DNA of 64,000 bases from Terriglobia bacterium (GTDB lineage: Bacteria > Acidobacteriota > Terriglobia > JAIQFV01): positions 14,544 to 78,543 of the forward strand of contig JAQUPQ010000014.1 of NCBI GenBank assembly GCA_028716525.1, given 5' to 3'. Position 1 is the stretch's first letter; the number at the start of each line of letters is the position of its first letter. The position numbers and the translations under genes are program-made. The notes under the pieces are model-generated. The model did no database searches. It worked only from the letters and a program-made list of their open reading frames with translations, and was not told the DNA's origin. Of this stretch, positions 1,562 to 46,548 are shown one piece after another.

Positions 1562-2608
1562 TCAAAAGGTTATTTTCGAAACGGCTTTCATTTCCTTGGC
1601 GACCACCGGCTTGGGCAGCGGGGCGTAGGCGAGACTGGTGGTGTATTGCTGTCCCTCCACCATCATCCACTTGAGAAAGTCGACCACAATTCTTCCCTTT
1701 TGCGGGTTGTCGAAATGTTCCGGGATGAGCAGCCAAGTGAAACTGGAAATCGGGTATGCCCCTTTGCCGGGGGCGTTGGTGATAGAAACGCGAAAGTCGG
1801 CCGGCATGTTGGTGGCCGCGCCGGCGGCAGCTTCCGAAACCGATTTCAAATCCGCCTTCACGAAAATCCCCGTGGAGTTTTTGACTCGTCCATAGGGCAC
1901 GTGGTTTTGAATGGCGTAAATCAACTCCACATAACCCATGGCGCCGGGCGTTTGTTTAACCACGCCCATCACGCCCTCGTTGCCTTTGCCTCCGAGTCCC
2001 ACAGGCCAGTTCACGGAAGTCGAATGGCCGACGCGAGATTTCCACTCGGGGCTGACTTTGGAAAGAAAGTCGGTCCAGATGTATGTAGTGCCACTGCCGT
2101 CAGACCGATGGACCACGACAATGTCGGTCCCCGGCAATTTCACTCCGGGGTTGTCGCGAGTGATGGCCGCATCATTCCATTTCGTAATCTTCCCCAAGTA
2201 GATGTTGGCGAGCGTTTCCCCGCTGAAATTTAGCTCTGCGTTAACGCCCGGGATGTTGTAGCTGGGGACGGCGGCGCCGAGAACCGTCGGAAAATGAAGA
2301 ATCGGAATCTTGGATTTCTTTAATTGTTCGTCGGTCATCGGTCCATCACTGGCCCCAAAGTCCACCGTGCGCGAAAGCAGTTGCTGAATGCCGCCCCCGC
2401 TGCCGATAGATTGATAATTGATCTGAATATCGGGATGCTTCTTGTGATATTCGGAAAACCACTTGGAGTAAATCGGGTACGGAAACGTCGCGCCGGCAGC
2501 GTTCAATTGAGTTTGGCCAAATGCCGGAACTGACCCGACGATAAACCCAGCCAACCCCAAAAGAATTCCTGCGATTCTGAGTCTGCTCATTAAATCTCCT
2601 TTTCTCAA
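1562..2608 (-). CDS. pstS: Phosphate-binding periplasmic protein PstS.
   Basis: It has a signal peptide and the PstS-like core (ATFPYPIYSKWFSEY...SGTTYIWTDFLS). It heads the pstSCA operon. Confidence 0.9.
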   Translation of the reverse strand: MRKGDLMSRLRIAGILLGLAGFIVGSVPAFGQTQLNAAGATFPYPIYSKWFSEYHKKHPDIQINYQSIGSGGGIQQLLSRTVDFGASDGPMTDEQLKKSKIPILHFPTVLGAAVPSYNIPGVNAELNFSGETLANIYLGKITKWNDAAITRDNPGVKLPGTDIVVVHRSDGSGTTYIWTDFLSKVSPEWKSRVGHSTSVNWPVGLGGKGNEGVMGVVKQTPGAMGYVELIYAIQNHVPYGRVKNSTGIFVKADLKSVSEAAAGAATNMPADFRVSITNAPGKGAYPISSFTWLLIPEHFDNPQKGRIVVDFLKWMMVEGQQYTTSLAYAPLPKPVVAKEMKAVSKITF

Positions 2609-4534: not shown

Positions 4535-4960
4535 AGATTCCATGAAACCCAGGACTGGGCTGAGGATTGTTCGGAGGGGGTCGGTACTGGGACTCGCCTT
4601 AGCAGCGTCAGTCCCGCGGCCTTTAGAGTGATCGGGGAATCGGTTGTGGGCCATCCACTGAAAGGGCAAGACACGCTGTCGTCAGGTGAGGGATGCTTTT
4701 TTCATCGAAGTACGATCCAGCATCGGTGATTCTGCCTTGCGTGGGCCTAGCGCTCGGCATCCCACCGAACCAAGAGGGGAGCAAGATGCTTCCTGCTGGC
4801 AGGAGCGCGATTCGAGTTGATTCCTAGCCAATTCATTCAAAAAAAGCGTGAGGTGAGGAATCCACATCTATCGTGAGAAGAAGCAGGGGCCATGAGGAAA
4901 GCGTCGCGAACTGAACGTGCGTACCCAACCCAACAAATGTCTTGACGAGGTAAATGAAAT

Positions 4961-4978
4961 CGGATATTCAGATATCCG
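4961..4978. promoter_or_regulatory. Putative ArsR operator: the inverted repeat CGGATAT-N4-ATATCCG, ending 2 nt before the arsR ATG. A TTGACG -35-like hexamer lies upstream.
   Basis: The palindrome is read directly. ArsR/SmtB repressors classically autoregulate through an imperfect 12-2-12 type palindrome that overlaps their own promoter. Confidence 0.45.
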
Positions 4979-4979
4979 G

Positions 4980-5384
4980 ATGCTTGAATTCTTTATGAAA
5001 GACATCGTCAAAGTTTTCAAGGCCCTCTCGGATACCACTCGTCTTCGCATTCTCCACCTGCTCGAGCAAACCGGGGAGCTGTGTGTGTGCGATCTCAAAA
5101 CCGTCCTCGAGTGTCCGCAGGCGCGCATCTCCAGGCACTTGGCGATTCTCAAGAATGCGGGCTTTATCGATGACCGGCGCGAGGGGACGTGGGTGCTTTA
5201 TTCCCTGACGAAAGCCAAGGGTCCCATTCAGCCCGTGGTTCGGAAAGCCTTCAAGCAGATCGTGGCTGTTTCTCCGGATTTTGGCGACGACAAGCAGCGC
5301 CTGCGACAGGCCCTGGCGCAAGGGCGATGCAAGACATTTCAAGTCGTCCATCCGCGTGGCCTGTCGAAACCAGCGCCACGATGA
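4980..5384 (+). CDS. arsR: ArsR/SmtB-family metalloregulatory repressor.
   Basis: It has a winged-HTH region and the ELCVCDL metal-binding motif (VFKALSDTTRLRILHLLEQTGELCVCDLKTVLECPQARISRHLAILKNAGFI). The start is taken at the internal ATG 4980 because the operator palindrome sits there. The track ORF begins at 4917. Confidence 0.85.
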   Translation: MLEFFMKDIVKVFKALSDTTRLRILHLLEQTGELCVCDLKTVLECPQARISRHLAILKNAGFIDDRREGTWVLYSLTKAKGPIQPVVRKAFKQIVAVSPDFGDDKQRLRQALAQGRCKTFQVVHPRGLSKPAPR

Positions 5385-5492
5385 CCGAGTGATCCGCAAA
5401 TCACCCGCGTGAATACTTTAAGAAGGGCGGATGGAAATCGCGGTTATGCACAGACAATGAAATCGGAATCAGACGATTTGTCGGAGGAATCC

Positions 5493-6128
5493 ATGCCTAA
5501 GCCCAGGTGGCGCTTGGTGATTGCCTTGGTAATACTGCTAGCGACTATATCCGCTAATTCTGCAGCTCCCGAACAAACGAAGGCTTTCAAAGGCTTCGAG
5601 GTGATTCCTCTGAGAAATGGCCCAAATGAAATTGATATCAATGGAGACGGCTTAAAAGATCTGATCTTTATCGCTTGGCGCGAGAACTACAATGCCCATG
5701 GATTTGACATTATTACTTTCTATCTTCAGGTTAAGAGTGATCATGATATCCAGCCGAAAGAAGAATGGTATCTTGTCCCGTTTTTTGATGAGGGAGGAGT
5801 TCCTGACAAAACCTCTCTCAAGACCGAGATGGGTGCTGATTGCATTCTCTCTGACATCCGCGTGATACGCCCAGTCTCACCCAAGAAGGGTCCTGTTACT
5901 ATTGTTGTTGGTATCCGTGATTTAGGAGAGTCGTATGCCGATGAAGCATCAATTAAATTTCTCGTTTATGAATTGAGGTACACCAAAGAGGGCATTCCAG
6001 GAAAACCGCCTTATTACTTTCAGCAGTCAAAGACCATACCTGGGCAAGAGAAGTACTGCGACATCAATAACGCATTTCAAAGAGAATTGGGACTCGGATG
6101 GTACCGCACCGACAGAAAAAAGGAATAG
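5493..6128 (+). CDS. Hypothetical secreted protein with a single D-x-N-G-D-G-x-x-D calcium-binding-like motif. The gene has a distinctly lower GC content than its neighbours.
   Basis: A GGAGGA ribosome-binding site precedes the ATG at 5493. The N-terminus (MPKPRWRLVIALVILLATISANSAAPEQ) is a signal peptide. Codon usage is AT-rich compared with the neighbours. The track ORF is 5409..6128. Confidence 0.5.
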   Translation: MPKPRWRLVIALVILLATISANSAAPEQTKAFKGFEVIPLRNGPNEIDINGDGLKDLIFIAWRENYNAHGFDIITFYLQVKSDHDIQPKEEWYLVPFFDEGGVPDKTSLKTEMGADCILSDIRVIRPVSPKKGPVTIVVGIRDLGESYADEASIKFLVYELRYTKEGIPGKPPYYFQQSKTIPGQEKYCDINNAFQRELGLGWYRTDRKKE

Positions 6129-6201
6129 GATGGTCTTACCAAACTCAGGGTGCCGCCCATAATCAGTGCTTGCAATCGATTGCAGATAATGTTGACTCCC
6201 G

Positions 6202-7314
6202 GTGACGCCTTCAAAAGATCGAACTCCAATGAATAAGAATTTCACAGGTCAACTGTCATTTCTCGACCGCTATTTGACCGTTTGGATTTTTGCGGCCATG
6301 GTGGCCGGCGTAGCTGGAGGATGGCTGGTTCCCGGGATTGTACCCCTCCTCAATCGATTCAACGTCGGCACCACCTCCATCCCCATCGCCGTGGGTTTGA
6401 TCCTGATGATGTATCCGCCTCTAGCCAAAGTGCGCTACGAAAAGCTGGGCCAAGTATTCCGCAACAAGAAAATTCTGTTGTTGTCGTTGATTCAAAATTG
6501 GATTGTTGGACCGGTGCTTATGTTCGCGCTCGCCATCCTTTTTCTTCACCATTATCCCGATTACATGGCGGGGCTCATCATGATGGGTTTGGCGCGTTGT
6601 ATCGCCATGGTGATTGTATGGAATGAGTTGGCCAAGGGAGATACCGAATACGCCGCCGGCCTGGTGGCCTTTAATTCGGTCTTCCAGGTACTGTTCTATT
6701 CCGTTTACGCGTGGATTTTTGTCACCAAGCTGCCGGAATGGTTCGGCATGCACGGGTCGGTGGTCAACGTCTCCATCCGTGACATTGCCCACAGCGTTTT
6801 TATCTACCTGGGCATACCTTTCGTGGCGGGCATGATCACACGGTTTGGTCTGCTGCGGGCGCGGGGCAAGGAGTGGTACGAGCGGAAATTCATTCCGCAC
6901 ATCAGCCCCGTCACGCTGATCGCGTTGTTGTTCACCATCGTGGTGATGTTTTCGCTGAAGGGCGAGTACATTGTTCGCCTGCCGCTCGACGTGGTGCGCA
7001 TCGCCATTCCGCTCCTCATCTACTTTGTGGTGATGTTTCTGGTCTCGTTTTACATGGGCCACAGGCTGGGCGCGGATTATTCCCAGACGGCCACGCTTTC
7101 GTTTACGGCTGCCAGCAATAACTTTGAGTTGGCAATTGCTGTCGCGGTTTCGGTCTTTGGCATCAATTCCGGCGCAGCTTTTGCAGCCGTCATCGGTCCG
7201 CTCGTCGAGGTGCCGGTTCTGATCAGCTTGGTCAATGTGTCTTTGTATTTTCAGCGGAGGTTCTATCCCGGCGTCGCAGTTCAGCCCGAAGCGGTTTTGG
7301 CAAGCCATACTTAA
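6202..7314 (+). CDS. acr3: Arsenite efflux permease of the ACR3 family.
   Basis: It is a ten-transmembrane-segment protein that begins ...[28 protein letters not shown], which is an ACR3 hallmark. An alternative start is at 6229. Confidence 0.9.
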
Positions 7315-7326
7315 GGAGTCCGATCC

Positions 7327-7737
7327 TTGAAGCAGCGGGTTTTATTTTTATGCACCGGCAACTCGGCGCGGAGCCAGTTGGCTGAAGGGCTGCTCAGACA
7401 CTTGGCGGGCGACCGCTTCGAAGTCTTCAGTGCGGGGACAGTTCCCGTGGGTGTGAATCCCGCTGCCGTTGAAGTCATGAATGAGATCGGGATCGACATC
7501 TCCTCTCAGTGGTCCAAATCGGTGGAGGAATACGCCGGGCAGGACTTTGATGTGGTTTTTACTTTGTGCGACTACGCTCGGGAGACCTGTCCGATTTATT
7601 CCGGTGGAACCAAACAGCTGCATCAGAACTTCGAGGATCCTACCTGGGCGTCTTCTGACGGTCGCCTGGAAGCTTTTCGCCGTGTGCGCGATAAAATTGC
7701 CGAGCGGTTGAAGCAGTTCATTGCTTCCGGACAGTGA
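7327..7737 (+). CDS. arsC: Arsenate reductase ArsC of the LMW-PTP, thioredoxin-coupled type.
   Basis: It carries the CTGNSARSQ P-loop motif (MKQRVLFLCTGNSARSQLAEG...) and is 136 aa long. Confidence 0.9.
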   Translation: MKQRVLFLCTGNSARSQLAEGLLRHLAGDRFEVFSAGTVPVGVNPAAVEVMNEIGIDISSQWSKSVEEYAGQDFDVVFTLCDYARETCPIYSGGTKQLHQNFEDPTWASSDGRLEAFRRVRDKIAERLKQFIASGQ

Positions 7738-7765
7738 GTTCCCGCTGCTCCGAAAATATTATTCT

Positions 7766-8046
7766 GTCGTCCCGCGAAGCGGGACTAGAATCCAATCTCA
7801 ATCTTTTCCCCAGGCTTACGCCTGGGGCTAAAGATCTGGCGTCCTCCTGGCGGAGGACTTGTTGAATGTGGTCCAGCAAAGTTCCTCGAAGACAGTCGAA
7901 AGTCCTTTATTCGAGACGTAAGTCCAGCGTCGGTGGGGTTAGAAATAGATTAGTCCCGCCTTCCGGGACGGTAGACCTTTAGCCCAGCACGTCAGTGCTG
8001 GAGACGGTACGAGGGGAGGGCACCGAGTCCCGCTCCGCGGGACGAC
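7766..8046. repeat. Cluster of GC-rich hairpin modules. These include GTCCCGC-N3-GCGGGAC at both ends, CCCCAGGCTTACGCCTGGGG, GTCCTCCTGGCGGAGGAC and CCAGCACGTCAGTGCTGG.
   Basis: The palindromes are read directly. The same modules recur at 12.6, 22.0, 46.2-46.5 and 49.2-49.4 kb. Confidence 0.6.
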
Positions 8047-8245
8047 AGATACCTTTCGGGAGCAGGTAAGATAATCGTGCGAACAGAAGATGCTTGGATT
8101 TCTTTCGCCACGTCCGGCATGATCCAAAATGAAAACTGCTTGAGGTGAAATCTCCGCAGGGCATAGAATTCACCTGTCGCCAGTCGCGCCTGTGTTGGCC
8201 CCTGATGTTTTATCGACCGGGTGGCACGTGAGGCTTTCAAGTAAA

Positions 8246-8483
8246 CGATCCCATTCCATGAACTGACCAGCGCTGAAAAGGAGCAGAAGGCAGAGATCAT
8301 TACGCGCGTGAGCGCTTGCGCATTGCATCATCGTCTCGCCACGCGCCTGCTCGAGGATGGCTCCGAGACTTGTGCGGTGCAAGAGCTTCTGGGTCACAGG
8401 GATGTGAAGACCACGATCCGGCGCGGCCCAACTCATGCTTTGGATCGGGGAGGCAAGGGCGTGAAGAGTCTCGTGGACACGCT
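8246..8483 (+). pseudogene. C-terminal remnant of a tyrosine recombinase (integrase-like, IntI/Xer type). It is about 78 codons long and has no N-terminal part.
   Basis: The translation ...RVSACALHHRLATRLLEDGSETCAVQELLGHRDVKTTIRRGPTHALDRGGKGVKSLVDTL* matches the conserved HxLRHxFAT...LLGH.DV.TT..YTHV...GG.GV.SPLD box II region. The catalytic Tyr region is degenerate. An in-frame stop sits just upstream at about 8243. Confidence 0.5.
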
Positions 8484-8736
8484 GTGAAGGAAAAGGCGGA
8501 GGGTGTTATGCGGAAACCAAATAAGATGCAGGATCGAAACAGAATTGCCCCTAATCCGTTGACGAAAAAGGGATGCGTCACGTTTTCGATGAGGGTATTA
8601 TCAGGACGGAAAACCGGATAATGGTTTTATCTGGAAACCATATATTTAGAAGTTAGGCCATTGGCGACTTTTCATGAGCGACCAAATCCACAATGCAAAG
8701 AAGTGACGGAATCAACAGTCACGAAAGGAATCCTCT

Positions 8737-9204
8737 ATGAGACTGCTCGTAGTCATCCTAAGTGGCTTGGTGTTGGCAGCTGCTCTTTGTACAGGCGAGG
8801 CTTCCAGCGCATCGAGCGCGGTAGTCAACCCTGTCGAAGAAACCCTTATCCAGATCGAGCACGACTGGGGAAACGCGCTGCTTAAGGCTGATGTAGCTGC
8901 GTGGAGCCGTTATCTGGGCGATGACTGGGTCCTTACGTATTCCGACGGCACGCTCGTAACTAAGCCAATGGCTCTGGCTGATCTTAAGAAGGGAGCGCTC
9001 AAGATCGAGTCTTTCCAGCTCGATGACGTGAAGGTGCGCGTGTACGGCGACGCCGCAGTCGTGACGGGTCAGATTACGGAGAAGAGCAAATTCCAGGACA
9101 AGGACACGAGCGGTGTGCGCCGCTTTACCGACGTGTTCGTGAAGCGCGCCGGCCGCTGGCAGGCTGTCGCCTCGCACGAGAGCGACGTTTCAGCAGCGAA
9201 GTAG
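8737..9204 (+). CDS. Secreted NTF2-like protein (DUF4440/SnoaL-like fold).
   Basis: It has a signal peptide and an NTF2-like pattern (IQIEHDWGNALLKADVAAWSRYLGDDWVLTYSDGTL...VYGDAAVVTGQ...RRFTDVFVKRAGRWQAVASHES). Confidence 0.6.
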   Translation: MRLLVVILSGLVLAAALCTGEASSASSAVVNPVEETLIQIEHDWGNALLKADVAAWSRYLGDDWVLTYSDGTLVTKPMALADLKKGALKIESFQLDDVKVRVYGDAAVVTGQITEKSKFQDKDTSGVRRFTDVFVKRAGRWQAVASHESDVSAAK

Positions 9205-9368
9205 TTGATTTATGTTCCTTGGAGCATGGCCCAACCATCCGGTGGAGCCAACCGTCGCCCCGCATGCACAGGTGACCGAGTCAGTGACCGGTTTGGGGAC
9301 GTCGGTGGCTCACCGGTTTCGTTAGCCCGCCAATAGAACTCGAGAAATCCCGATCAGGGGAAGCCCAT

Positions 9369-9868
9369 ATGAACACCGAACTGAAGAAGCGCGATCTCGT
9401 CGTTACCCGGGTCTTCAACGCTCCGGTCAAGCAGCTATGGAAGGCCTGGAGCGATCCCGAGCTCGTGAGGCGCTGGTGTATATGAATCGCTTCATCGGCA
9501 CGATCTTCTCGTAGGTCCAGGTGTTAAACATGTCTTGACCACCCAAGAATTCCTTTGGCGCGCGCATACAAACAAGAGATGTCCCGCCCTCGCGGAAATC
9601 CATCATGGCAATAGGGCAAGCAAAGCCCACTGGCTACATCCTTCGGTTCGCCGACAAGGACGGCAATCCAATGGACCCCGTCAAGCAGGGATTATCGGCG
9701 GATATCCCAAAGGAAATGCGTCATGAAGTCACTTTCAGGGAACTCGGCAACGATAAGTCGGAAGTTACAGTGACCAAATATGGCTGGACGGTTGGTCCAA
9801 TGATGGAGATGTCCAAAATGGGCTTGGAGCAGTGCCTGGATAAGATGGCTGCGCTCTTTGCCAAATAA
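9369..9868 (+). pseudogene. SRPBCC/AHSA1-family gene disrupted by an internal inversion. The N- and C-terminal thirds are on the plus strand and the middle third is encoded on the minus strand.
   Basis: The plus strand from 9369 reads MNTELKKRDLVVTRVFNAPVKQLWKAWSDPELVRRWC and then stops. The minus strand across about 9487-9630 encodes GFACPIAMMDFREGGTSLVCMRAPKEFLGGQDMFNTWTYEKIVPMKRFIY. The plus strand across 9605-9868 encodes ...YILRFADKDGNPMDPV...VTFRELGNDKSEVTVTKYGWTV...QCLDKMAALFAK. Together these read as one collinear SRPBCC protein if the middle segment is flipped. Confidence 0.65.
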
Positions 9869-10289
9869 TGAACGGTCGGGGACATAGGCAACAAAAGAGT
9901 CTTGGGAGATGGGTTACACTTGATTCTTTTTCTTATGACGCCAGAGGCTGCTGTAAGCATCCTCGCCGACGCCCTGCGCGATGGAGACTTTATCCGCTCC
10001 CACCTTTGAAGGGTGGCTGAAGAACAATCTTGTGGAGTGCGGTCCGCCGCGGCGGAACGCCGCTTTGGATTCTCGCATCGAAAGAGAGCATGGGAAGATG
10101 AGATGACCGAGGCATAGGGGGTGCAATCCTCTTCCAAAGCCCCGACAGGTCGGGGCACTCCAAATTTAAACATCGTTTTCCTAATCTCACCGGGAACGCG
10201 CAAGAGTTGATATATTTCAAGATCGAACTCCGATGAAATCGGAGCGGAGGAGTCAAGCCGCGTCCGATCTTGACGAGTCGGGGGAAGAG

Positions 10290-10570
10290 CAAGGTACGCA
10301 GCGGCGAAAGCACCCGTGCCCGCTCAAGCCCGGCGAATCACCATCAAAGTCATGTCGTCGGCGTCGAAATCCGCGCTGCGGAATTTTGTCCAATCGTCGA
10401 GAATCGTCCGAATCATCAGTGACGGCGCGGCGCTTGAATTCCGTCCAACCAGATCGATCTGCCGTTCCGTTCCGTAAGGACGGCCCGCATCATCTTCCAT
10501 CTCCGTCAGTAAAGAGAATCAGGCCGTCGCCGGGTTGCAGCCTGCCAGGACTTGGTGATGGTCCGAAGAG
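10290..10570 (-). pseudogene. Frameshifted 3' fragment of a PP2C/SpoIIE-type phosphatase gene. It is a paralog of the gene at 11429..12424.
   Basis: The DNA is clearly similar to 11440-11660. The minus-strand frames give ...RLQPGDGLILFTDG, then a frameshift, then LTEMEDDAGRPYGTERQIDLVGRNSSAAP...DDMTLMVIRRA. The N-terminal two-thirds are absent. Confidence 0.6.
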
Positions 10571-10625
10571 CTAAGTTGAGCATTGATGATTTGACGCCTG
10601 GTATGAAAAGTGTTATACTAAAAGT

Positions 10626-10862
10626 ATGAAAACAGCTATCTCCATACCGGACAAAGTTTTTCGTTCTGCGGATTCCCTGGCCAAGCGTCTCGGCGTATCC
10701 CGGAGTAAGTTGTACGCAACCGCCGTAGCCGATTTCTTGTCCAGGTACCAAGGTCGACAAGTAAAGGAACGCCTTGACGCAATATATGGCAAGGAGGAAT
10801 CCACACTCGATTCGGGGCTAGTCAAACTTCAGGTGAAATCTTTTCCGCATGAGGAGTGGTGA
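10626..10862 (+). CDS. Type II antitoxin, partner of the MazF/PemK toxin. It is a small DNA-binding protein.
   Basis: It is 78 aa long (MKTAISIPDKVFRSADSLAKRLGVSRSKLYATAVADFLS...). Its stop overlaps the toxin ATG, as in TGATGG. Confidence 0.6.
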   Translation: MKTAISIPDKVFRSADSLAKRLGVSRSKLYATAVADFLSRYQGRQVKERLDAIYGKEESTLDSGLVKLQVKSFPHEEW

Positions 10863-11200
10863 TGGAAAGAGGCACGGTGTGGTGGGCGGAGCTCCCCGAT
10901 CCCGTTGCATCGGAACCTGGTTTTCGACGTCCCGTTGTGATTGTTTCTTCCGATGTGTTCAATCGGAGTCGCATACGAACTATAGTCGCCGTTGTGATCA
11001 CTTCGAATCTCCGGCTCGCTGAAGCTCCTGGTAACGTGCAGATTGCCGCAGCCGACTCGGGTCTTCCCAAGGATTCTGTGGCAAACATATCGCAGGTTAT
11101 CACCATAGATAAGAGCTTCCTCACCAAACGTTGCGGTCGATTGCCGCCATCGCTTTTGAAGACGCTTGATCAGGGATTGCGGCTGGTTCTGTCTTTGTAA
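10862..11200 (+). CDS. MazF/PemK-family endoribonuclease toxin.
   Basis: The sequence reads MERGTVWWAELPDPVASEPGFRRPVVIVSSDVFNRSRIRTIVAVVITSNLRLAEAPGNVQI...GLPKDSVANISQVITIDKSFL, which is the canonical PemK/MazF pattern. Confidence 0.85.
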   Translation: MERGTVWWAELPDPVASEPGFRRPVVIVSSDVFNRSRIRTIVAVVITSNLRLAEAPGNVQIAAADSGLPKDSVANISQVITIDKSFLTKRCGRLPPSLLKTLDQGLRLVLSL

Positions 11201-16836: not shown

Positions 16837-19305
16837 ATGGAGACCATCATTCAGGATGTTCGGCACGGTTTGCGACTCTTGCGGAAAAACCCCAGCTTCA
16901 CGTTGATTGCGATACTGACGCTGGCCTTGGGCATTGGCGCCAACACCGCCATTTTTACGGTGATCAATGCCGTTTTCTTACACCCTCTGGCCATCGAAGA
17001 TCCCTCTCGTGTGGTAGCGGTTTTCACCCACGACACGCACACCGTTCAGGCGGCCAATTTGAATCTCACTCCAAGTTCGCTTCCCAACTATGAGGATTTC
17101 CGCGATCAGAACACGGTTTTTTCGGGTCTCGCTGCTTTTTTCCCCACAGGAGTGCGATGGACGAACAACGGTGCCACAGTCGGTTTGCCCGCCATGATGA
17201 CCTCTGCCAATTATTTCGATGTTCTCGGCCTCAAACCGTTTCGTGGACGGTTTTTCTCAGCCGACGAGGACATCAAGAAAGCGGCCAATGTAGCCGTTCT
17301 CAGTTACAACTTGTGGATAAATAAATTCGGGGCTGATCCCAATCTCATCGGAAAGACCATCACACTAAACAATCTGCCCTTCACGGTGATAGGCGTGGCG
17401 CCGCAGGGATTCAAAAGCACGTTCTCGCTGGTGGGACCCGACTGGGTGTGGATGCCTCTCAGCATGCGCGATCAGCTGTTGACCGGTCCGCTGAAAACCG
17501 AGATGAACAATCGGCGCTTTCGATGGATCAACATTTTTGGCCGTTTGAAGCCCGGCGTCAGCTTGGCCCAGGCCCAGTCTTCCATGAAGATCATCGCGGC
17601 CTCTTTGGAAAAACAATTTCCCAGCTTCAATCAGGGCCGCACGGTGGAGCTCTCCGGCATTTCCGAGGCAGCCATGGGGATCAATCAACGCTCGCAATTT
17701 GTGCAGGCCGGTGTGGTGTTAATGGGAGTCGTGGGGCTGGTCTTGTTGACTGCTTGCGTCACCCTGGCCAATCTGCTGTTGGCGCAATCGGCTCAGCGTG
17801 AAAGAGAAATCAGTGTCCGGACCGCGATGGGCGCCAGCCGTGGCCGCCTTATCCGTCAGTTGCTGGTCGAAAGCATTACCCTGGCGGTATTGGGCGGGGG
17901 GGTCGGACTGTTGGTGGCATACTGGGGACGCAACGCGCTGTGGTCGTTCCGGCCGCCCTTTCTCCAGGCCGCTTCCATTGACTTGAGCTTTGATCCCAAG
18001 GTGCTGACCTTCACGGCGGTCATCTCGGTATTGACAGGAATTATCTTCGGATTGGCGCCGGCGTTAAAACTATCGCGTTCGAATTTGAATGAGATTTTGA
18101 AGCAGGGAGGGCGCAGCGGGTCGCTGGACCTCGGACACAACCGCATGCGGAGCTTGCTGGTGGTTTCCGAAATTGCGCTGGCCACGGTGGCGCTGGTCGG
18201 ATCGGGTCTTTTCATACGCAGCATGCAAGCTGCCCAGAACATGGATTTGGGATTTGACTCCAAGCACATCGGGTTCATGGGCTTGAATCCCGGAATCCAA
18301 AACTATGACCAGCCGCGAGGCGAACAGTTTTATCTCGATGCCATCGCCAAGGCACGGCTTGTTCCCGGAGTTCGAGCGGCCGCCGTTTCGCTGCTGGCCC
18401 CGCTGAATTTGAGTATCGAGTGGACCGTTTTTTCGGAAGGTGTACAACAGAACTCCGACTATCGAGGATCGTTGATTGCTTTCAATGATGTGACCCCTGG
18501 ATATTTCGATACCCTGCGCATTCCTTTCCGAAAGGGAAGAGACTTTACGGAGTTTGACCGGGATCCGGCCACGCCCATCGCCATCATTAACGAGGAAGTG
18601 GCCCGGCAGCTTTGGCCCGGCAAAGAAGCCTTGGGGAAACACTTCACGATTGTCAACCAAACGGCTCTCATCGAGGTGGTCGGCGTGGTCGCCGATTCCA
18701 CGATCGCAGCGATCGGCGAAGATCCGACGCCGATGATTTACCGTCCCATTCAGCAGGCTTACGTGCCGGGTGCCGCGTTGCTGGTGCGAACCGGAGGAGA
18801 TCCCGGAAAAGCATTGGGCGCAGTGCGCGAACAGGTCCAATCGCTCGACCGTCACATGCCGCTGCGAAATACAGGAACGGTGCAGGAAAATATTGAAGCC
18901 GGACTGTGGGCCCCTCGCATGGGTGCCGCGCTGCTCAGTATTTTTGGAGGCCTGGCAATGCTTTTGGCCCTGATTGGCGTGTACGGCGTGATGTCGTACT
19001 CGGTGGTACAGCGAACTCAAGAAATCGGCATCCGCATGGCGCTGGGCGCCAATGCCGCCGATTTGCTGCGGCTGGTCATCGGACAAGGAATGACTTTGGC
19101 AATGGTCGGATTAAGTGTGGGCGTTGTCGTGGCCTTTTCCGCGGCGCGATACATTTCCTCCCTGTTGTTCGGCATCAAGGCCAGTGATCCTGCGACCTAT
19201 GCCAGCGTGGCATTGTTATTTAGCTTGGTGGCTGTTATGGCGTGTTATGTCCCGGCGCGACGAGCGACGAAAGTCGATCCGCTGGTGGCGTTGCGGTATG
19301 AATGA
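16837..19305 (+). CDS. MacB-like ABC transporter permease: an FtsX-family, duplicated-permease protein with a MacB periplasmic core domain.
   Basis: It is 822 aa long. The N-terminal segment reads LRKNPSFTLIAILTLALGIGANTAIFTV. It has two FtsX modules and ends in the C-terminal motif CYVPARRATKVDPLVALRYE. Confidence 0.8.
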   Translation: METIIQDVRHGLRLLRKNPSFTLIAILTLALGIGANTAIFTVINAVFLHPLAIEDPSRVVAVFTHDTHTVQAANLNLTPSSLPNYEDFRDQNTVFSGLAAFFPTGVRWTNNGATVGLPAMMTSANYFDVLGLKPFRGRFFSADEDIKKAANVAVLSYNLWINKFGADPNLIGKTITLNNLPFTVIGVAPQGFKSTFSLVGPDWVWMPLSMRDQLLTGPLKTEMNNRRFRWINIFGRLKPGVSLAQAQSSMKIIAASLEKQFPSFNQGRTVELSGISEAAMGINQRSQFVQAGVVLMGVVGLVLLTACVTLANLLLAQSAQREREISVRTAMGASRGRLIRQLLVESITLAVLGGGVGLLVAYWGRNALWSFRPPFLQAASIDLSFDPKVLTFTAVISVLTGIIFGLAPALKLSRSNLNEILKQGGRSGSLDLGHNRMRSLLVVSEIALATVALVGSGLFIRSMQAAQNMDLGFDSKHIGFMGLNPGIQNYDQPRGEQFYLDAIAKARLVPGVRAAAVSLLAPLNLSIEWTVFSEGVQQNSDYRGSLIAFNDVTPGYFDTLRIPFRKGRDFTEFDRDPATPIAIINEEVARQLWPGKEALGKHFTIVNQTALIEVVGVVADSTIAAIGEDPTPMIYRPIQQAYVPGAALLVRTGGDPGKALGAVREQVQSLDRHMPLRNTGTVQENIEAGLWAPRMGAALLSIFGGLAMLLALIGVYGVMSYSVVQRTQEIGIRMALGANAADLLRLVIGQGMTLAMVGLSVGVVVAFSAARYISSLLFGIKASDPATYASVALLFSLVAVMACYVPARRATKVDPLVALRYE

Positions 19306-19306
19306 A

Positions 19307-19345
19307 AAGTGACAAGTGGCGAGTGACAAGTGGTTAGAAGTGGCC
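19307..19345. repeat. Short array of the motif (A)GTGACAAGTGG, followed by an imperfect hairpin, immediately after the first permease gene.
   Basis: The sequence AAAGTGACAAGTGGCGAGTGACAAGTGGTTAGAAGTGGCC is read directly. The same motif family occurs at 21829-21955 and 22298-22336. Confidence 0.4.
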
Positions 19346-19428
19346 TGCTGGATCTTGGATCCAGATTCTAGCCACTAACCTCTGACTTCTCAAAATCGAT
19401 CACTTCGGTCCAGTCCCCGGAGCAACTC

Positions 19429-21819
19429 ATGAACCCACTTTGGCAAGATTTTCGTTACGGAATTCGGATTCTAATCAAGTCGCCGGGCTTCCTGGCCATT
19501 GCAGTGTTTACGTTGGCCTTGGGCATTGGCGCCAACACCGCCTTATTTAGTGTCCTCAACACCTATTTGTTCCACTCGTTGCCTTATCCACGGTCTGACA
19601 GGTTGGTCCAAGTGTACCGGACCTCTCCGTTTTCACAAAGTTGGCCGCATTCGGCGGCGAACTTCTTGGATTTGAGCACAAAAAATAGTGTGCTTGAGGA
19701 AATGGCGGCGCTTCATTGGACGCAGCCTACACTGATCGAAAAAGGGGAATATGCGGAAAGCCTGAAAGGCTTAGAAGTCTCGGCTGGTTTTTTTCCGACC
19801 TTCGGTGTTCAGCCGGAGTTGGGACGCGTATTCACTCCCGAAGAAGATCGCCCCGGCCCGAACCTGGTGGCCGTTCTGAGTCATCGGTTCTGGCAACACC
19901 GATTCGGAGGCGATCCCAACATATTGGGAAGGATGCTTAAGCTGGATGGGGGGAGTGTGAAGGTGATCGGAGTGATGCCGCCGCAATTCGAGCAACCCCT
20001 TCTGTTTGGCAATGTGGATGTGTGGCGGCCGATTGATTTCAGCGCTGAGCGTCGGCAGAATCGCCACAATAATTATTTGAGTGCCATTGGACGATTGAAG
20101 CCGGGCGTGACGGTGGAGCAGGCCCAGGATTCCATGGTCAGGCTGTTCGCCGGGATTGCCAGCGCCAATTCCTCCAATCAAGGTGAGAGTCTCCGGCTCC
20201 AACCGTTGCAGCGATCCATGTCGGATGATCTCGGGCGCACCGTCATGTGGTACAGCTTCGGCCTCTCCGGATTCTTGCTGCTGATTGCTTGCGCCAATCT
20301 GGCCAATCTTCAGCTCGTGCGTTTGTCGGCGCGAACTCGTGAATATGGCGTGCGGGCGGCCTTGGGAGCGGGAAGGTTCCGTCTGGTGCGTCAATGTCTT
20401 ATCGAAAACCTGATTGTCGCGACTCTCGGCGGCGGGCTCAGTCTGTTAATTGCGGAATGGGGTGTTTCGTTTATCAGCCTGCGTCTATTCAGCGAGCTTC
20501 CGGGTGCTCAGATCGTGCTCGATTATCGCGTCTTTGGTTTCGCGATGCTGTGTTCGATGGTGACCGGCTTGATGTTCGGGACTGTACCCGCCTGGTTGTC
20601 GACCCGTCTCGACCTGAATCAGGTGTTAAAAGAGAATCTGCGCGGAGCGATCTCGGTTTCACACCATCGTTTGCGTCACGCGCTCATCATTGGCGAAGTG
20701 GCTTTGGCGTTGATCCTACTGGCGGGTGGGGGCTTGTTTCTGCGAGGTTTGCAACAATTTACCCAACACGATGCCGGCTGGCAAGTGGATGGCTTGTTGA
20801 CGGCACAAATCGGAATGCCCAAGGACACGAGTTTTTATCGGCAGCTCGAAGATCGGCTCCGCGCGATTCCGGGTGTCAAGCACGTGGCCCTTTCTGTTTC
20901 CTTGCCGGTTTGGGGATTCAACAGCAGCGGTGGGGGCAGGGCCGATGGACAACCGGAACCGAGACCCGGGCAATGGCCGGAGATTTTTTACGAGCCGGTA
21001 AGCCCAAGCTACTTTGAAACACTGGGAGTTCGCCTGATCGCCGGCCGTACCTTTAATGAATCGGATACCGCCAATAACGTGCCTGTTCTCATAGTCAACG
21101 AAAGGCTGGCGCGCCTTTTCTGGCCGCACGAAAGCGCCATCGGCAAACGTATCATGCCCCAGGGGGATACGAATTGGTGGGAAATCATCGGGGTCGTGAA
21201 CGACATGAGATTTCCAAGCCACATAGAAAAATCCTACACCGATCTTGAAGCCTTCCTACTCCTGGCGCAAGCTCCATTACATCAAGTCAACATCTTTCTG
21301 CGAACGTCTGTTCCTCCTGAGACCCTGGCCAATCAATTGCGTGGCGCAGTAGCGGCCCTCGACCCCAACCAGCCAGTTCAGCAAATTCGCACCGTGCGGA
21401 GTTGGGTTGATTTGGGACTCGGCAACATAACGCTTCTCGGCGCATTGCTCGGAGCCTTTGCGGTCCTCGGATTAGTGTTGGCTGCGGTGGGAATTTACGG
21501 GGTGATTTCCTATGCGGTGGCCCAACGGACCAATGAAATTGGGATTCGGATGGCACTGGGTGCGCCGCCAGGCATCTTGTTATGGCTGATTCTTAGCAAG
21601 GGGGCCCGCTTGGTCTTGTGGGGAACAGCGCTCGGTTATGGAGGCGCGTACGTTGTGGCGCGCTTGTTAATGGCAACTATTCCTACATTGCCGACACGAG
21701 ATCCACTGGCGCTGGCGGGAATCACCTTCGCCCTATTTGCCGTGGCCCTACTCGCTTGCTATCTCCCGGCGCGACGCGCCACCAAGGTTGATCCGATGGT
21801 GGCGCTGAGATATGAGTAG
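19429..21819 (+). CDS. MacB-like ABC transporter permease (FtsX-family duplicated permease), a tandem paralog of the upstream gene.
   Basis: It is 796 aa long. It starts MNPLWQDFRYGIRILIKSPGFLAIAVFTLALGIGANTALFSV and ends CYLPARRATKVDPMVALRYE. Confidence 0.8.
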   Translation: MNPLWQDFRYGIRILIKSPGFLAIAVFTLALGIGANTALFSVLNTYLFHSLPYPRSDRLVQVYRTSPFSQSWPHSAANFLDLSTKNSVLEEMAALHWTQPTLIEKGEYAESLKGLEVSAGFFPTFGVQPELGRVFTPEEDRPGPNLVAVLSHRFWQHRFGGDPNILGRMLKLDGGSVKVIGVMPPQFEQPLLFGNVDVWRPIDFSAERRQNRHNNYLSAIGRLKPGVTVEQAQDSMVRLFAGIASANSSNQGESLRLQPLQRSMSDDLGRTVMWYSFGLSGFLLLIACANLANLQLVRLSARTREYGVRAALGAGRFRLVRQCLIENLIVATLGGGLSLLIAEWGVSFISLRLFSELPGAQIVLDYRVFGFAMLCSMVTGLMFGTVPAWLSTRLDLNQVLKENLRGAISVSHHRLRHALIIGEVALALILLAGGGLFLRGLQQFTQHDAGWQVDGLLTAQIGMPKDTSFYRQLEDRLRAIPGVKHVALSVSLPVWGFNSSGGGRADGQPEPRPGQWPEIFYEPVSPSYFETLGVRLIAGRTFNESDTANNVPVLIVNERLARLFWPHESAIGKRIMPQGDTNWWEIIGVVNDMRFPSHIEKSYTDLEAFLLLAQAPLHQVNIFLRTSVPPETLANQLRGAVAALDPNQPVQQIRTVRSWVDLGLGNITLLGALLGAFAVLGLVLAAVGIYGVISYAVAQRTNEIGIRMALGAPPGILLWLILSKGARLVLWGTALGYGGAYVVARLLMATIPTLPTRDPLALAGITFALFAVALLACYLPARRATKVDPMVALRYE

Positions 21820-21828
21820 CAGGGGGCA

Positions 21829-22336
21829 GTGACAAGTGGTGAGTGAAGAGGAACCAGTGACGAGTGTGGAGTGACAAGTGACGAGAGAATAGTGATTAGT
21901 GGTTAGTGACCAGTGACAAGAGAACAGTGATCAGTGGTTAGTGACAAGTGGTTAGAGGCAGTTCTTCATGCGCCGATGGCTCGGGGACCCGAGAGCATGA
22001 AAATGATGAGGACCGATTCGGTTAGGCCCGGAGGGCCGGTTTGAGGGTAGCCCGCCCGCAGGGCGGGGCATTTCCCATCGCGAGGCGGAAATCATGCTGT
22101 GCAGGACGAATTTTGAATTTCGGTTTGCAAACACCGCAGCCGAGTCCCGATACGTCGGGACGAAGGCTGCGCTACCCAAACGACCACGGTTCCCCATTTT
22201 CGGAGCAGTGGTAATCGAACTTGGGCCAGAATGTTTTCATGCATCTGACGGATTTTTTCTTCTTCGCCCCGCAGCTCCATTCAGGTGGTTGAATTCTCTC
22301 GTCACTGGTCACTAACCACTGGTCACTAATCACTGC
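21829..22336. repeat. Composite MITE-like element. A left array of about 127 bp of GTGACAAGTG/TTAGTGACCAGTG motifs faces an inverted right array (GTCACTGGTCACTAACCACTGGTCACTAA). Between them lie about 340 bp containing hairpin modules of the dispersed repeat family.
   Basis: The arrays at 21829-21955 and 22298-22336 are read directly in opposite orientation. The internal hairpins (e.g. GCCCGCCCGCAGGGCGGGGC, and TTCTTCATGC...GCATGAAAA) are shared with 46.46-46.5 kb. The right end abuts the ROK gene stop. Confidence 0.4.
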
Positions 22337-46172: not shown

Positions 46173-46548
46173 GTCCCGCAGTGCGGGACTCATCCCACCC
46201 CCTTCCGTTCTTTCCCGGCACTCACGTGCCGGGCTAAAGATCTAACGTCCGTCTTCGACGGACTATGTGAAGCTGATTTCTTGTTTTGTTTTTCCCCGCG
46301 AAGGACTAGCCCACGGATTCATTGACCCGCCGGGATTTCATGAAGGAAGTCCCGATGTACCTCATCGGGACGATAGATTTTTAGCCCCAGGCGTGAGCCT
46401 GGGGTATTGGAAGGAACGCGGTTTCAGTCCCGCTCTGCGGGACGGCAGACCGGCATTTTCGGAGCAGTTCTTCATGCAGCGTGGTCGCACCCAGTAGCAT
46501 GAAAATCGTTCTGGTAGCCGGGATGCTCCGCTTTTTGGAACATCCCGG
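46173..46548. repeat. Cluster of GC-rich hairpin modules from the same dispersed family: GTCCCGCAGTGCGGGAC, CCCGGCACTCACGTGCCGGG, GGCTAAAGATCTAACGTCC, CCCGATGTACCTCATCGGG, CCCCAGGCGTGAGCCTGGGG, GTCCCGCTCTGCGGGAC and CCGGGATGCTCCGCTTTTTGGAACATCCCGG.
   Basis: Modules are shared with 7.77-8.05 kb, 12.6-12.9 kb, 22.0 kb and 49.2-49.4 kb. This one contains a near-verbatim 65-bp match to 12848-12915. Confidence 0.6.

Follow-up and report, generated by a model that had tools for sequence, protein, structure and literature searches.

A gene whose middle third lies on the opposite strand raises the questions of what event turned it round, and of whether it could be turned back. Such a gene is found in the metagenome-assembled genome (MAG) of an Acidobacteriia/Terriglobia bacterium deposited at NCBI, on a contig of 83,087 nt, of which one stretch of 64,000 nt, here called the window, was analyzed. 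An earlier note on this DNA had described the locus as an SRPBCC (AHSA1-like) gene inactivated by an internal inversion, and had offered as possible causes a site-specific or micro-homology-mediated event, a phase-variable switch, or an assembly artefact. In the following sections the anatomy of the broken gene and of its joins is described, the setting of the gene is analyzed, and the possible origins of the inversion are weighed.

The broken gene and its reconstructed ancestor

The AHSA1/SRPBCC gene at 9369-9868 is split into three pieces that alternate in strand (pieces A, B and C, Table 1). The ORFs of these pieces covered successive parts of the Pfam AHSA1 profile (PF08327), so that the plus-strand N-terminal ORF matched positions 1-20, the minus-strand ORF positions 23-69 and the plus-strand C-terminal ORF positions 73-124. 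The ORF of piece A continues into the inverted block and meets a stop at 9483-9485, giving a 38-aa ORF (9369-9485); the open frame of piece B is a 67-aa minus-strand ORF (9427-9630), and that of piece C an 87-aa plus-strand ORF (9605-9868). These are the longest open pieces, and no intact ORF of the size typical of the family (165-166 aa in close homologs) is present. The annotation of the MAG lists for this gene only a 65-aa C-terminal remnant (9671-9868, MDD5543026.1), under the name 'SRPBCC domain-containing protein'. The broken locus is a pseudogene of the AHSA1/SRPBCC family (PF08327).

Table 1. Coordinates, in the numbering of the window, of the pieces of the broken gene, of the joins between them and of the features upstream
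Feature	Position	Strand	Description	Basis
Truncated tyrosine-recombinase remnant	8245-8487	+	C-terminal ~80 codons only	six-frame translation, NCBIfam, Pfam
DUF4440/SnoaL-like gene	8737-9204	+	neighbouring cassette-like module upstream	Pfam, blastn
attC-like imperfect palindrome	9229-9327	+	directly upstream of the gene	hairpin scan, DNA folds
Piece A	9369-9478	+	5′ part of the SRPBCC/AHSA1 gene, 110 nt (codons 1-36 plus 2 nt), ...ELVRRW-W[tg]	ORF list, Pfam, blastn
Left join	9477-9480		9478|9479, GCGCTGGTG|TATATGAATCGC; 3 nt lost, GGG of TGGTG-GGG-GCCAGTG	alignment to L001/L003
Piece B	9479-9634	-	inverted block, 156 nt; minus strand encodes P-V-GFACPIAMMDFREGGTSLVCMRAPKEFLGGQDMFNTWTYEKIVPMKRFIY, ortholog codons 39-89	ORF, Pfam, blastn, tblastn
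Right join	9633-9638		9634|9635, GCCCACTGGC|TACATCCTTCGG; blunt, microhomology 0	alignment, reconstruction
Piece C	9635-9868	+	final 234 nt, codons 90-166 plus stop, Y-ILRFADKDGNP...MAALFAK*	ORF, Pfam, blastn

Over 2,000 homologs were returned by a search with the reconstructed protein. Nearest among them were intact proteins of 165-166 aa, at most 86% identical and annotated as 'YndB with AHSA1/START domain'. The two best orthologs, L001 (NCBI MAG GCA_041490505.1) and L003 (JGI metagenome), served as references for the DNA alignment. With blastn, L001 aligned in three pieces: nt 9952-10110 with window 9320-9478 on the plus strand (93.7%, E = 1e-64), nt 10114-10271 with window 9634-9477 on the minus strand (94.3%, E = 3e-65), and nt 10268-10501 with window 9635-9868 on the plus strand (84.2%, E = 2e-68). 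Of the ortholog, just 3 nt are left uncovered between the pieces and 4 nt are covered twice, and such a fit is far beyond chance. The Pfam pieces in +/-/+ order and the blastn tiling thus bear out what the earlier note had read from the ORFs, i.e., that an in-place inversion of the middle third inactivated the gene.

By tblastn, the gene is a single collinear segment in 81 of 84 related loci, which were drawn from genomes and metagenomes across many phyla; two of the others are clipped by contig ends, and the third (L095) carries a plain frameshift. The +/-/+ pattern was seen in none of the 84, and the window alone has such a layout. An intact allele of the same lineage was not found either, since the hypothetical intact proteins (166 aa with the Gly at the left join, 165 aa without it) were absent from a collection of 15 billion proteins. 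Exact look-ups of the 87-aa ORF, of the 67-aa ORF and of a 370-aa neighbour gave no match, and an exact-pattern scan gave nothing in genome contigs and only two collinear orthologs in metagenomes.

The breakpoints (Table 1) enclose a block of 156 nt, and not the block of about 135 bp at 9487-9624 that had first been reported, which falls short by about 10 nt at each end. Nor is the inversion precise or clean, as it had been called. When the flipped sequence was compared with L001 and L003, exactly two indels were observed, both at the joins: a loss of 3 nt (GGG), which encode the Gly in the near-invariant motif RWWGP, and a gain of 2 nt (TA). The TA dinucleotide is doubled, so that 9479-9480 is an inverted copy of the TA at 9635-9636. 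At the left join, the TG at 9477-9478 represents a possible 2-nt microhomology, and TGTA is an inverted match of the TACA at 9635-9638.

The earlier note had also expected that a flip of the block would yield one continuous ORF of 160-170 aa. We flipped the block at 30 x 35 breakpoint pairs (±15 nt), and none gave a full ORF; the longest open run was 134 aa, with an out-of-frame end. This formal failure is due to the scars at the junctions and not to want of an inversion, because the scars leave the two joins in need of different frame phases, and restoration of the ORF requires the reuse of 1 nt or the removal of 2 nt at one join. With GGG added and one TA taken out, the inferred ancestor is a 501-nt gene that encodes an uninterrupted 166-aa protein, codon-for-codon collinear with L001. 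This ancestor was derived from the window and from an ortholog with a DNA identity of about 90%, and the Ile codon beside the TA was assumed to be ATA (ATT in L001). The reconstructed protein matched PF08327 over positions 1-124 of 125 (E = 1.4e-22, 80.6 bits, with a cut-off of 22.1). Short self-complementary motifs are found at both breakpoints of the inferred ancestor, CTGG-N6-CCAG and ATAT, which as a clue to the mechanism may be taken as suggestive only. With a net change of -1 nt, a re-inversion could not restore the gene.

Apart from the joins, the gene shows little sign of wear. The reconstructed protein has one private change (E to K) at columns that are at least 95% conserved, which equals the median of 93 intact homologs, and no further stops or frameshifts were found within any of the three pieces. 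This absence of later decay indicates that the inversion is evolutionarily recent.

An integron-like setting

The surroundings of the gene look like those of a decayed integron-like array, an assignment that the sequence features described here support in part. An attC site was sought by its architecture, R″(RYYYAAC)-L″...L′-R′(GTTRRRY) in an imperfect hairpin, and the hairpin scan found the strongest site of the window directly upstream of the gene. Its boxes are R″ GCCCAAC (9229-9235) and L″ TGGAGCC (9243-9249), with a 7-nt spacer between them, and L′ GGCTCAC (9307-9313) and R′ GTTAGCC (9321-9327), again with a 7-nt spacer. The site, a candidate attC by this architecture, pairs at its termini, and its fold z-scores are modest (-2.5 and -2.7). 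The same scan gave no second convincing attC-like site anywhere in the window, the DNA past the broken gene included.

The boundaries of homology were then compared with the boxes. The window is homologous to L001 and L003 from 9320/9321 on, where the G|TT of R′ (GTTAGCC) lies, as far as the stop codon. Past the gene, L001 has GGCTAAC...GTTAGAC, which forms a strong hairpin (z-scores of -4.7 and -5.7), and the GGCTAAC of this hairpin complements exactly the GTTAGCC found upstream. The orthologs L005 and L006 have a site of the same layout upstream of the gene, and their own sequences part at a G|TT some 120 nt past it. A count of attC boxes after the stops of the orthologs gave 0 of 82 vs 0 of 1680, with a pattern that was too strict, as it rejected even the clear site of L001.

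The truncated tyrosine recombinase upstream (Table 1) matched best the integron integrase model TIGR02249 (E = 2.9e-13, model positions 250-315 of 315), ahead of XerC/XerD (about 1e-9) and of Pfam Phage_integrase (E = 2.7e-7), although it lies far below the 265-bit cut-off of TIGR02249, with only 66 of the 315 positions left. The catalytic Tyr would presumably be expected where the remnant reads KTTIRRGPTHA. In the MAG the remnant is annotated as a 74-aa protein (8263-8487). A search for its full-length relatives gave short fragments only, and with the remnant as the probe no integrase was detected within 6-10 kb of the other ortholog loci.

The neighbours of the broken gene are small accessory genes on the same strand, with the DUF4440 gene upstream and a MazF toxin gene downstream, the latter overlapped on its upstream side by an ORF whose weak matches are antitoxin-like. 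The block of DNA homology of the DUF4440 gene (8807-9237, 93-94%) recurs elsewhere in unrelated contexts (blastn, L007, L009 and L010). The DUF4440 relatives (L007-L017) are not syntenic with the window and carry an IS110-family transposase, of which no remnant was found in the window. When these relatives were compared for an interruption of the same hairpin site by the IS110 elements, the homology was seen to end at 9237, with no recognisable remainder.

Truncated intI genes and clusters of attC sites that lack an integrase (CALINs) have been described, and IntegronFinder applies to CALINs a threshold of at least 2 attC sites (10.1101/2025.06.18.660453). The integron-like context of the broken gene fits relaxed selection, under which the loss of a cassette gene would be tolerated.

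Origin of the inversion

We are confident that the inversion is a genuine, one-off illegitimate event, whichever of the two sub-mechanisms considered below produced it. The most likely of them, to which we give about an even chance, is an inter-strand template switch during replication, and we infer that the event was replicative rather than a break-and-rejoin. Inversion-type events between strands have been formalized in a four-point template-switch model (Loytynoja & Goldman 2017, PMC5453318). If the broken gene arose in this way, copying would have proceeded to nt 108-110 of the gene (...CTGGTG), would have switched, with the 2-nt TG match as primer, to a point about 160 nt further on in the opposite strand, would have run backwards from nt 269-271 to nt 114, and would have resumed on the original template at nt 268. 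As the outcome, nt 111-113 (GGG) would be skipped and nt 268-269 (TA) would be copied twice, in opposite orientations. The consequence of the inversion is a 38-aa N-terminal stub, with the remaining protein unexpressed or truncated.

When the four-point model was applied to the inferred ancestor, the observed 500 nt were reproduced exactly (point 1 = 108-110, 2 = 271-269, 3 = 114, 4 = 268). The 2-nt microhomology leaves a choice of three solutions that are equivalent, and the ancestor to which they apply had itself been derived from the window together with the ortholog. [quoted passage not shown] In real data, point 1 precedes point 4 in all the event types found, and the events were short and local and were detected as clusters of mutations (PMC5453318). 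For an event of this class, a copied tract of 156 nt is perhaps long.

Alternatively, two double-strand breaks about 157 bp apart may have freed a fragment that was then re-ligated in the reverse orientation by end-joining (Ku/LigD-type NHEJ or an alternative pathway), with a 2-nt 5′ TA overhang filled in at both ends and 3 nt resected at the other break. We consider this a serious but less probable origin. The outcome that it predicts is the same as the observed sequence: a gain of 2 nt as an inverted duplication of the self-complementary TA, together with a loss of 3 nt, is what is expected of fill-in and resection at staggered breaks, and the blunt join of zero microhomology suits ligation at least as well as re-priming by a polymerase. 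However, end-joining requires that two breaks occur simultaneously within 157 bp and that a very short fragment is recaptured, and a template switch requires just one event; furthermore, Ku/LigD were not found among the window ORFs scanned, and no feature positively sets end-joining apart from template switching. The scars do not separate the two, because a 2-nt match has a chance expectation of about 1 in 16 and the second switch has no match at all. We favour the single-event template switch over two-break end-joining, but the sequence does not tell the two apart.

A further explanation, which the earlier note had raised, is that the inversion is absent from the organism and was made by the assembly or by chimeric library molecules. 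The source is indeed a metagenome-assembled genome, only one sample is known to carry the inversion, and the intact allele of the lineage has never been seen. On the other side stands the Logan contig SRR22315506_2029757 (3,615 nt), which was reached through look-ups of the 38-aa stub and of the DUF4440 neighbour, and which is 100% identical to window 6794-10408 and runs unbroken and unbranched through both joins. Logan contigs are a separate k-mer assembly of the raw SRA reads, in this case possibly of the same library as the MAG. A de Bruijn graph assembler is not expected to make such joins without reads that contain them, so that the contig lends the joins indirect support at the level of reads. 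A misassembly is unlikely because this separate assembly reproduces both joins. In addition, the joins have just 2-4 nt in common with the alternative path, and random library chimeras are rare single-junction events, not two coordinated junctions that dominate a consensus. An artefact is therefore improbable in our view, and the pseudogene is genuine, of recent origin and irreversible.

The locus could also be thought of as a programmed and reversible intragenic inverton of the 'premature stop' type, as in gut Bacteroides, in which a recombinase flips the segment between inverted repeats. Site-specific recombination is as a rule conservative, whereas here 3 nt were lost and 2 gained at the joins, and a flip back leaves a frameshift (net -1 nt). 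Intragenic invertons that introduce premature stops do exist; by definition an inverton has two inverted repeats that a recombinase recognises, and it is reversible (10.1101/2023.03.11.532203). A tyrosine-recombinase remnant does lie about 1 kb upstream of the gene, but it is a dead remnant of about 80 codons, and a scan of 40 window ORFs brought up no integrase, invertase or transposase. Short inverted repeats, which the earlier note had proposed to look for at the junctions, were not detected at 9479/9634 by a repeat search with a 6-nt seed, the sole inverted match being TGTA/TACA (4 nt). The k-mer contig is, moreover, unbranched across the joins. We consider an inverton very improbable, and a phase-variable switch is effectively excluded. 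Among the causes that the earlier note had offered, the micro-homology or illegitimate event is thus the one supported, while the phase-variable switch falls for want of repeats and, among the window ORFs scanned, of an invertase, and by the net loss of 1 nt.

Recombination by an integron integrase (IntI) at secondary sites within the cassette is to our mind no more credible than an inverton. In its favour, an attC-like site and an intI remnant accompany the gene, which does look like an integron-type cassette. As a rule, however, the sites that IntI cuts are of the G|TT type and its recombination is conservative, but GTT is missing from both breakpoints (CTGGTG|GGG|GCCAGTG and TTCATA|TA|CATCC), and the joins are non-conservative. 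Finally, the reading of the pieces as three unrelated partial SRPBCC copies side by side, with no inversion at all, draws on the number and mobility of SRPBCC genes, and it is the least probable of all, being refuted by the exact tiling of a single ortholog (3-nt gap and 4-nt overlap), by the similar identity of pieces A and B to that ortholog (95.5% and 94.2% with L001) and by the sum of the pieces, a 501-nt gene of exactly the ortholog length.

Implications and comparison with known systems

Mutations of the kind seen in this inversion are known, though uncommon; this one is well resolved, and it is no regulatory switch. Its biological weight is minor, i.e., one dead accessory gene in one uncultured acidobacterium. 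A wider reading, which we put forward only tentatively and hold to be rather unlikely, is that a fresh, natural 156-bp inversion made by a single template switch has been caught in a wild soil bacterium inside an integron-type cassette. If template switching recurrently kills cassette genes in decaying integrons, it would be an under-recognised route of pseudogene formation in bacteria, and array DNA, which is prone to hairpins and processed in single-stranded form, would perhaps favour template switching. The decayed integron-like setting agrees with the view that arrays erode after the loss of the integrase.

Standard alignment and annotation would miss such a route, as seen from the 65-aa entry in the MAG, and small inversions with scars give rise to pseudogenes that are reported as short 'domain-containing proteins'. 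Because pipelines misreport such scarred inversions, a strand-aware comparison with orthologs is needed. Junction scars can also distinguish a programmed inverton from an illegitimate event without read data, which is useful as intragenic invertons get catalogued.

Compared with the AHSA1-like SRPBCC proteins ('YndB with AHSA1/START domain'), the reconstructed 166-aa protein fits PF08327 end to end, whereas the gene in the window is not expressible as such, with open fragments of only 38, 67 and 87 aa. Like integrons and CALINs, the locus combines a truncated integrase remnant with short same-strand accessory genes (DUF4440, SRPBCC and MazEF), an attC-like palindrome and blocks of homology that end at G|TT; it differs from them in that the window has only one convincing attC-like site, with none past the broken gene, and in that no integrase was detected in the 6-10 kb around the other ortholog loci. 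With the intragenic invertons (Chanin et al., 10.1101/2023.03.11.532203) it shares an inverted segment that lies wholly within a coding sequence and leads to a premature stop and smaller ORFs. Invertons, in contrast, are flanked by repeats, flipped by an invertase, reversible and heterogeneous within populations, whereas this locus has neither repeats nor, among the ORFs of the window, a live recombinase, its joins are non-conservative and a reverse flip does not restore the gene. The template-switch mutations (Ripley's quasi-palindrome; four-point model, PMC5453318) described in that paper are short and local, unlike the 156 nt that would have been copied here, where a pre-existing flanking inverted repeat is missing and the microhomology is just 2 nt. 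[quoted passage not shown]

attC-like sites around the SRPBCC gene

In the window as well as in orthologous loci the SRPBCC gene is adjoined by attC-like imperfect palindromes with R''/L''/L'/R' boxes and 7-nt spacers (Table), and the homology blocks around the gene have a boundary at the G|TT within the R' box. Because palindromes adjoin the gene and homology breaks at this point, the sequences suggest that the gene would be a mobile integron-type cassette. No attC-like site was found 3' of the broken copy in the window.

The neighboring DUF4440 gene block (8807-9237) was found again, with 93-94% nucleotide identity, in unrelated contexts (loci L007 and L009-L017), and in several of these loci an IS110-family transposase lies directly 3' of the DUF4440 gene. 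The homology ends at position 9237, right after an R''-like GCCCAAC box, and an IS targeting this hairpin site may explain the end.

Among the family matches of the tyrosine recombinase remnant, integron integrase TIGR02249 was the best (E 2.9e-13, model positions 250-315 of 315). Stops close the reading frame upstream, and KTTIRRGPTHA is read where the catalytic Tyr would be expected; the MAG annotation gives a 74-aa 'tyrosine-type recombinase/integrase' with a CTG start (8263-8487). The recombinase remnant is dead.

Features of the window and of related loci (L001, intact ortholog; L005, another ortholog)
Feature	Position	Strand	Remark
ArsR-family regulator	4917-5384	+	
CarG-like protein	5409-6128	+	
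ACR3/SBF-family transporter	6202-7314	+	
LMW-phosphatase-type ArsC	7327-7737	+	
GTCCCGC hairpin copies	7769-7785, 7953-7969, 8027-8043, 22144-22161, 46173-46189, 46427-46443		
Tyrosine recombinase C-terminal remnant	8245-8487	+	~80 codons; best family, integron integrase TIGR02249
attC-like imperfect palindrome	9229-9327		R''/L''/L'/R' boxes, 7-nt spacers
attC-like imperfect palindrome	L001 10508-10582		
attC-like imperfect palindromes (two)	L005 ~1545-1665 and ~2216-2322		
78-aa ORF 5' of the MazF/PemK gene	10626-10862	+	ribbon-helix-helix/antitoxin-like matches, weak
MazF/PemK toxin gene	10856-11200	+	Pfam E 3e-25

Allele mosaicism and a second disrupted ortholog

In the gene (9369-9868), DNA identity to L001 (10001-10501) is 94-95% through two thirds of the length and only 84% over the last third, where the protein is closer to other homologs, of the P0003/P0005 type ('...NPMDPVKQGLSAEIPKEMRHEV...'), than to L001. 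The allele is a mosaic, in which identity drops at the right breakpoint of the inversion; this pattern suggests that cassette alleles recombined with one another in the past. Besides the window gene, the sole disrupted copy among the 84 loci is L095 (6001-6487, from a Dehalococcoidia MAG), which is split into two overlapping HSPs on the same strand; it is apparently either a pseudogene with a simple frameshift or the product of a sequencing error.

Flanking genes and repeats

An arsenic-resistance-type cluster (4917-7737, +) lies directly 5' of the integrase remnant. Between arsC and the remnant there are three copies of a short hairpin, GTCCCGC-N3-GCGGGAC, which is repeated at no fewer than six places in the window (at least six, one being the variant GTCCCG-N6-CGGGAC) and may represent a REP-like element family. 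In the same stretch the Acido-Lenti-1 RNA motif of Rfam is matched twice, at 7808-7859 (+) and 7952-8002 (-), with 33.3 and 31.7 bits, both of which fall below the gathering score of 37. Further away, two MacB_PCD/FtsX permease genes of ~800 aa each stand in tandem (16837-21819, +); because such paralogs are abundant in Acidobacteriota, the pair would fit the taxonomic assignment.

The ~750 nt 3' of the broken gene (9869-10625) have no recognizable coding content: ORFs 9721-10203 (-) and 10233-10574 (+) gave no Pfam or NCBIfam matches, and neither a clear attC nor a significant hairpin was found in 9869-10625, which may be further decayed cassette material. Beyond it, the 78-aa ORF and the MazF/PemK gene overlap by 7 nt and are likely to form a toxin-antitoxin pair; such pairs are typical cargo in chromosomal cassette arrays.
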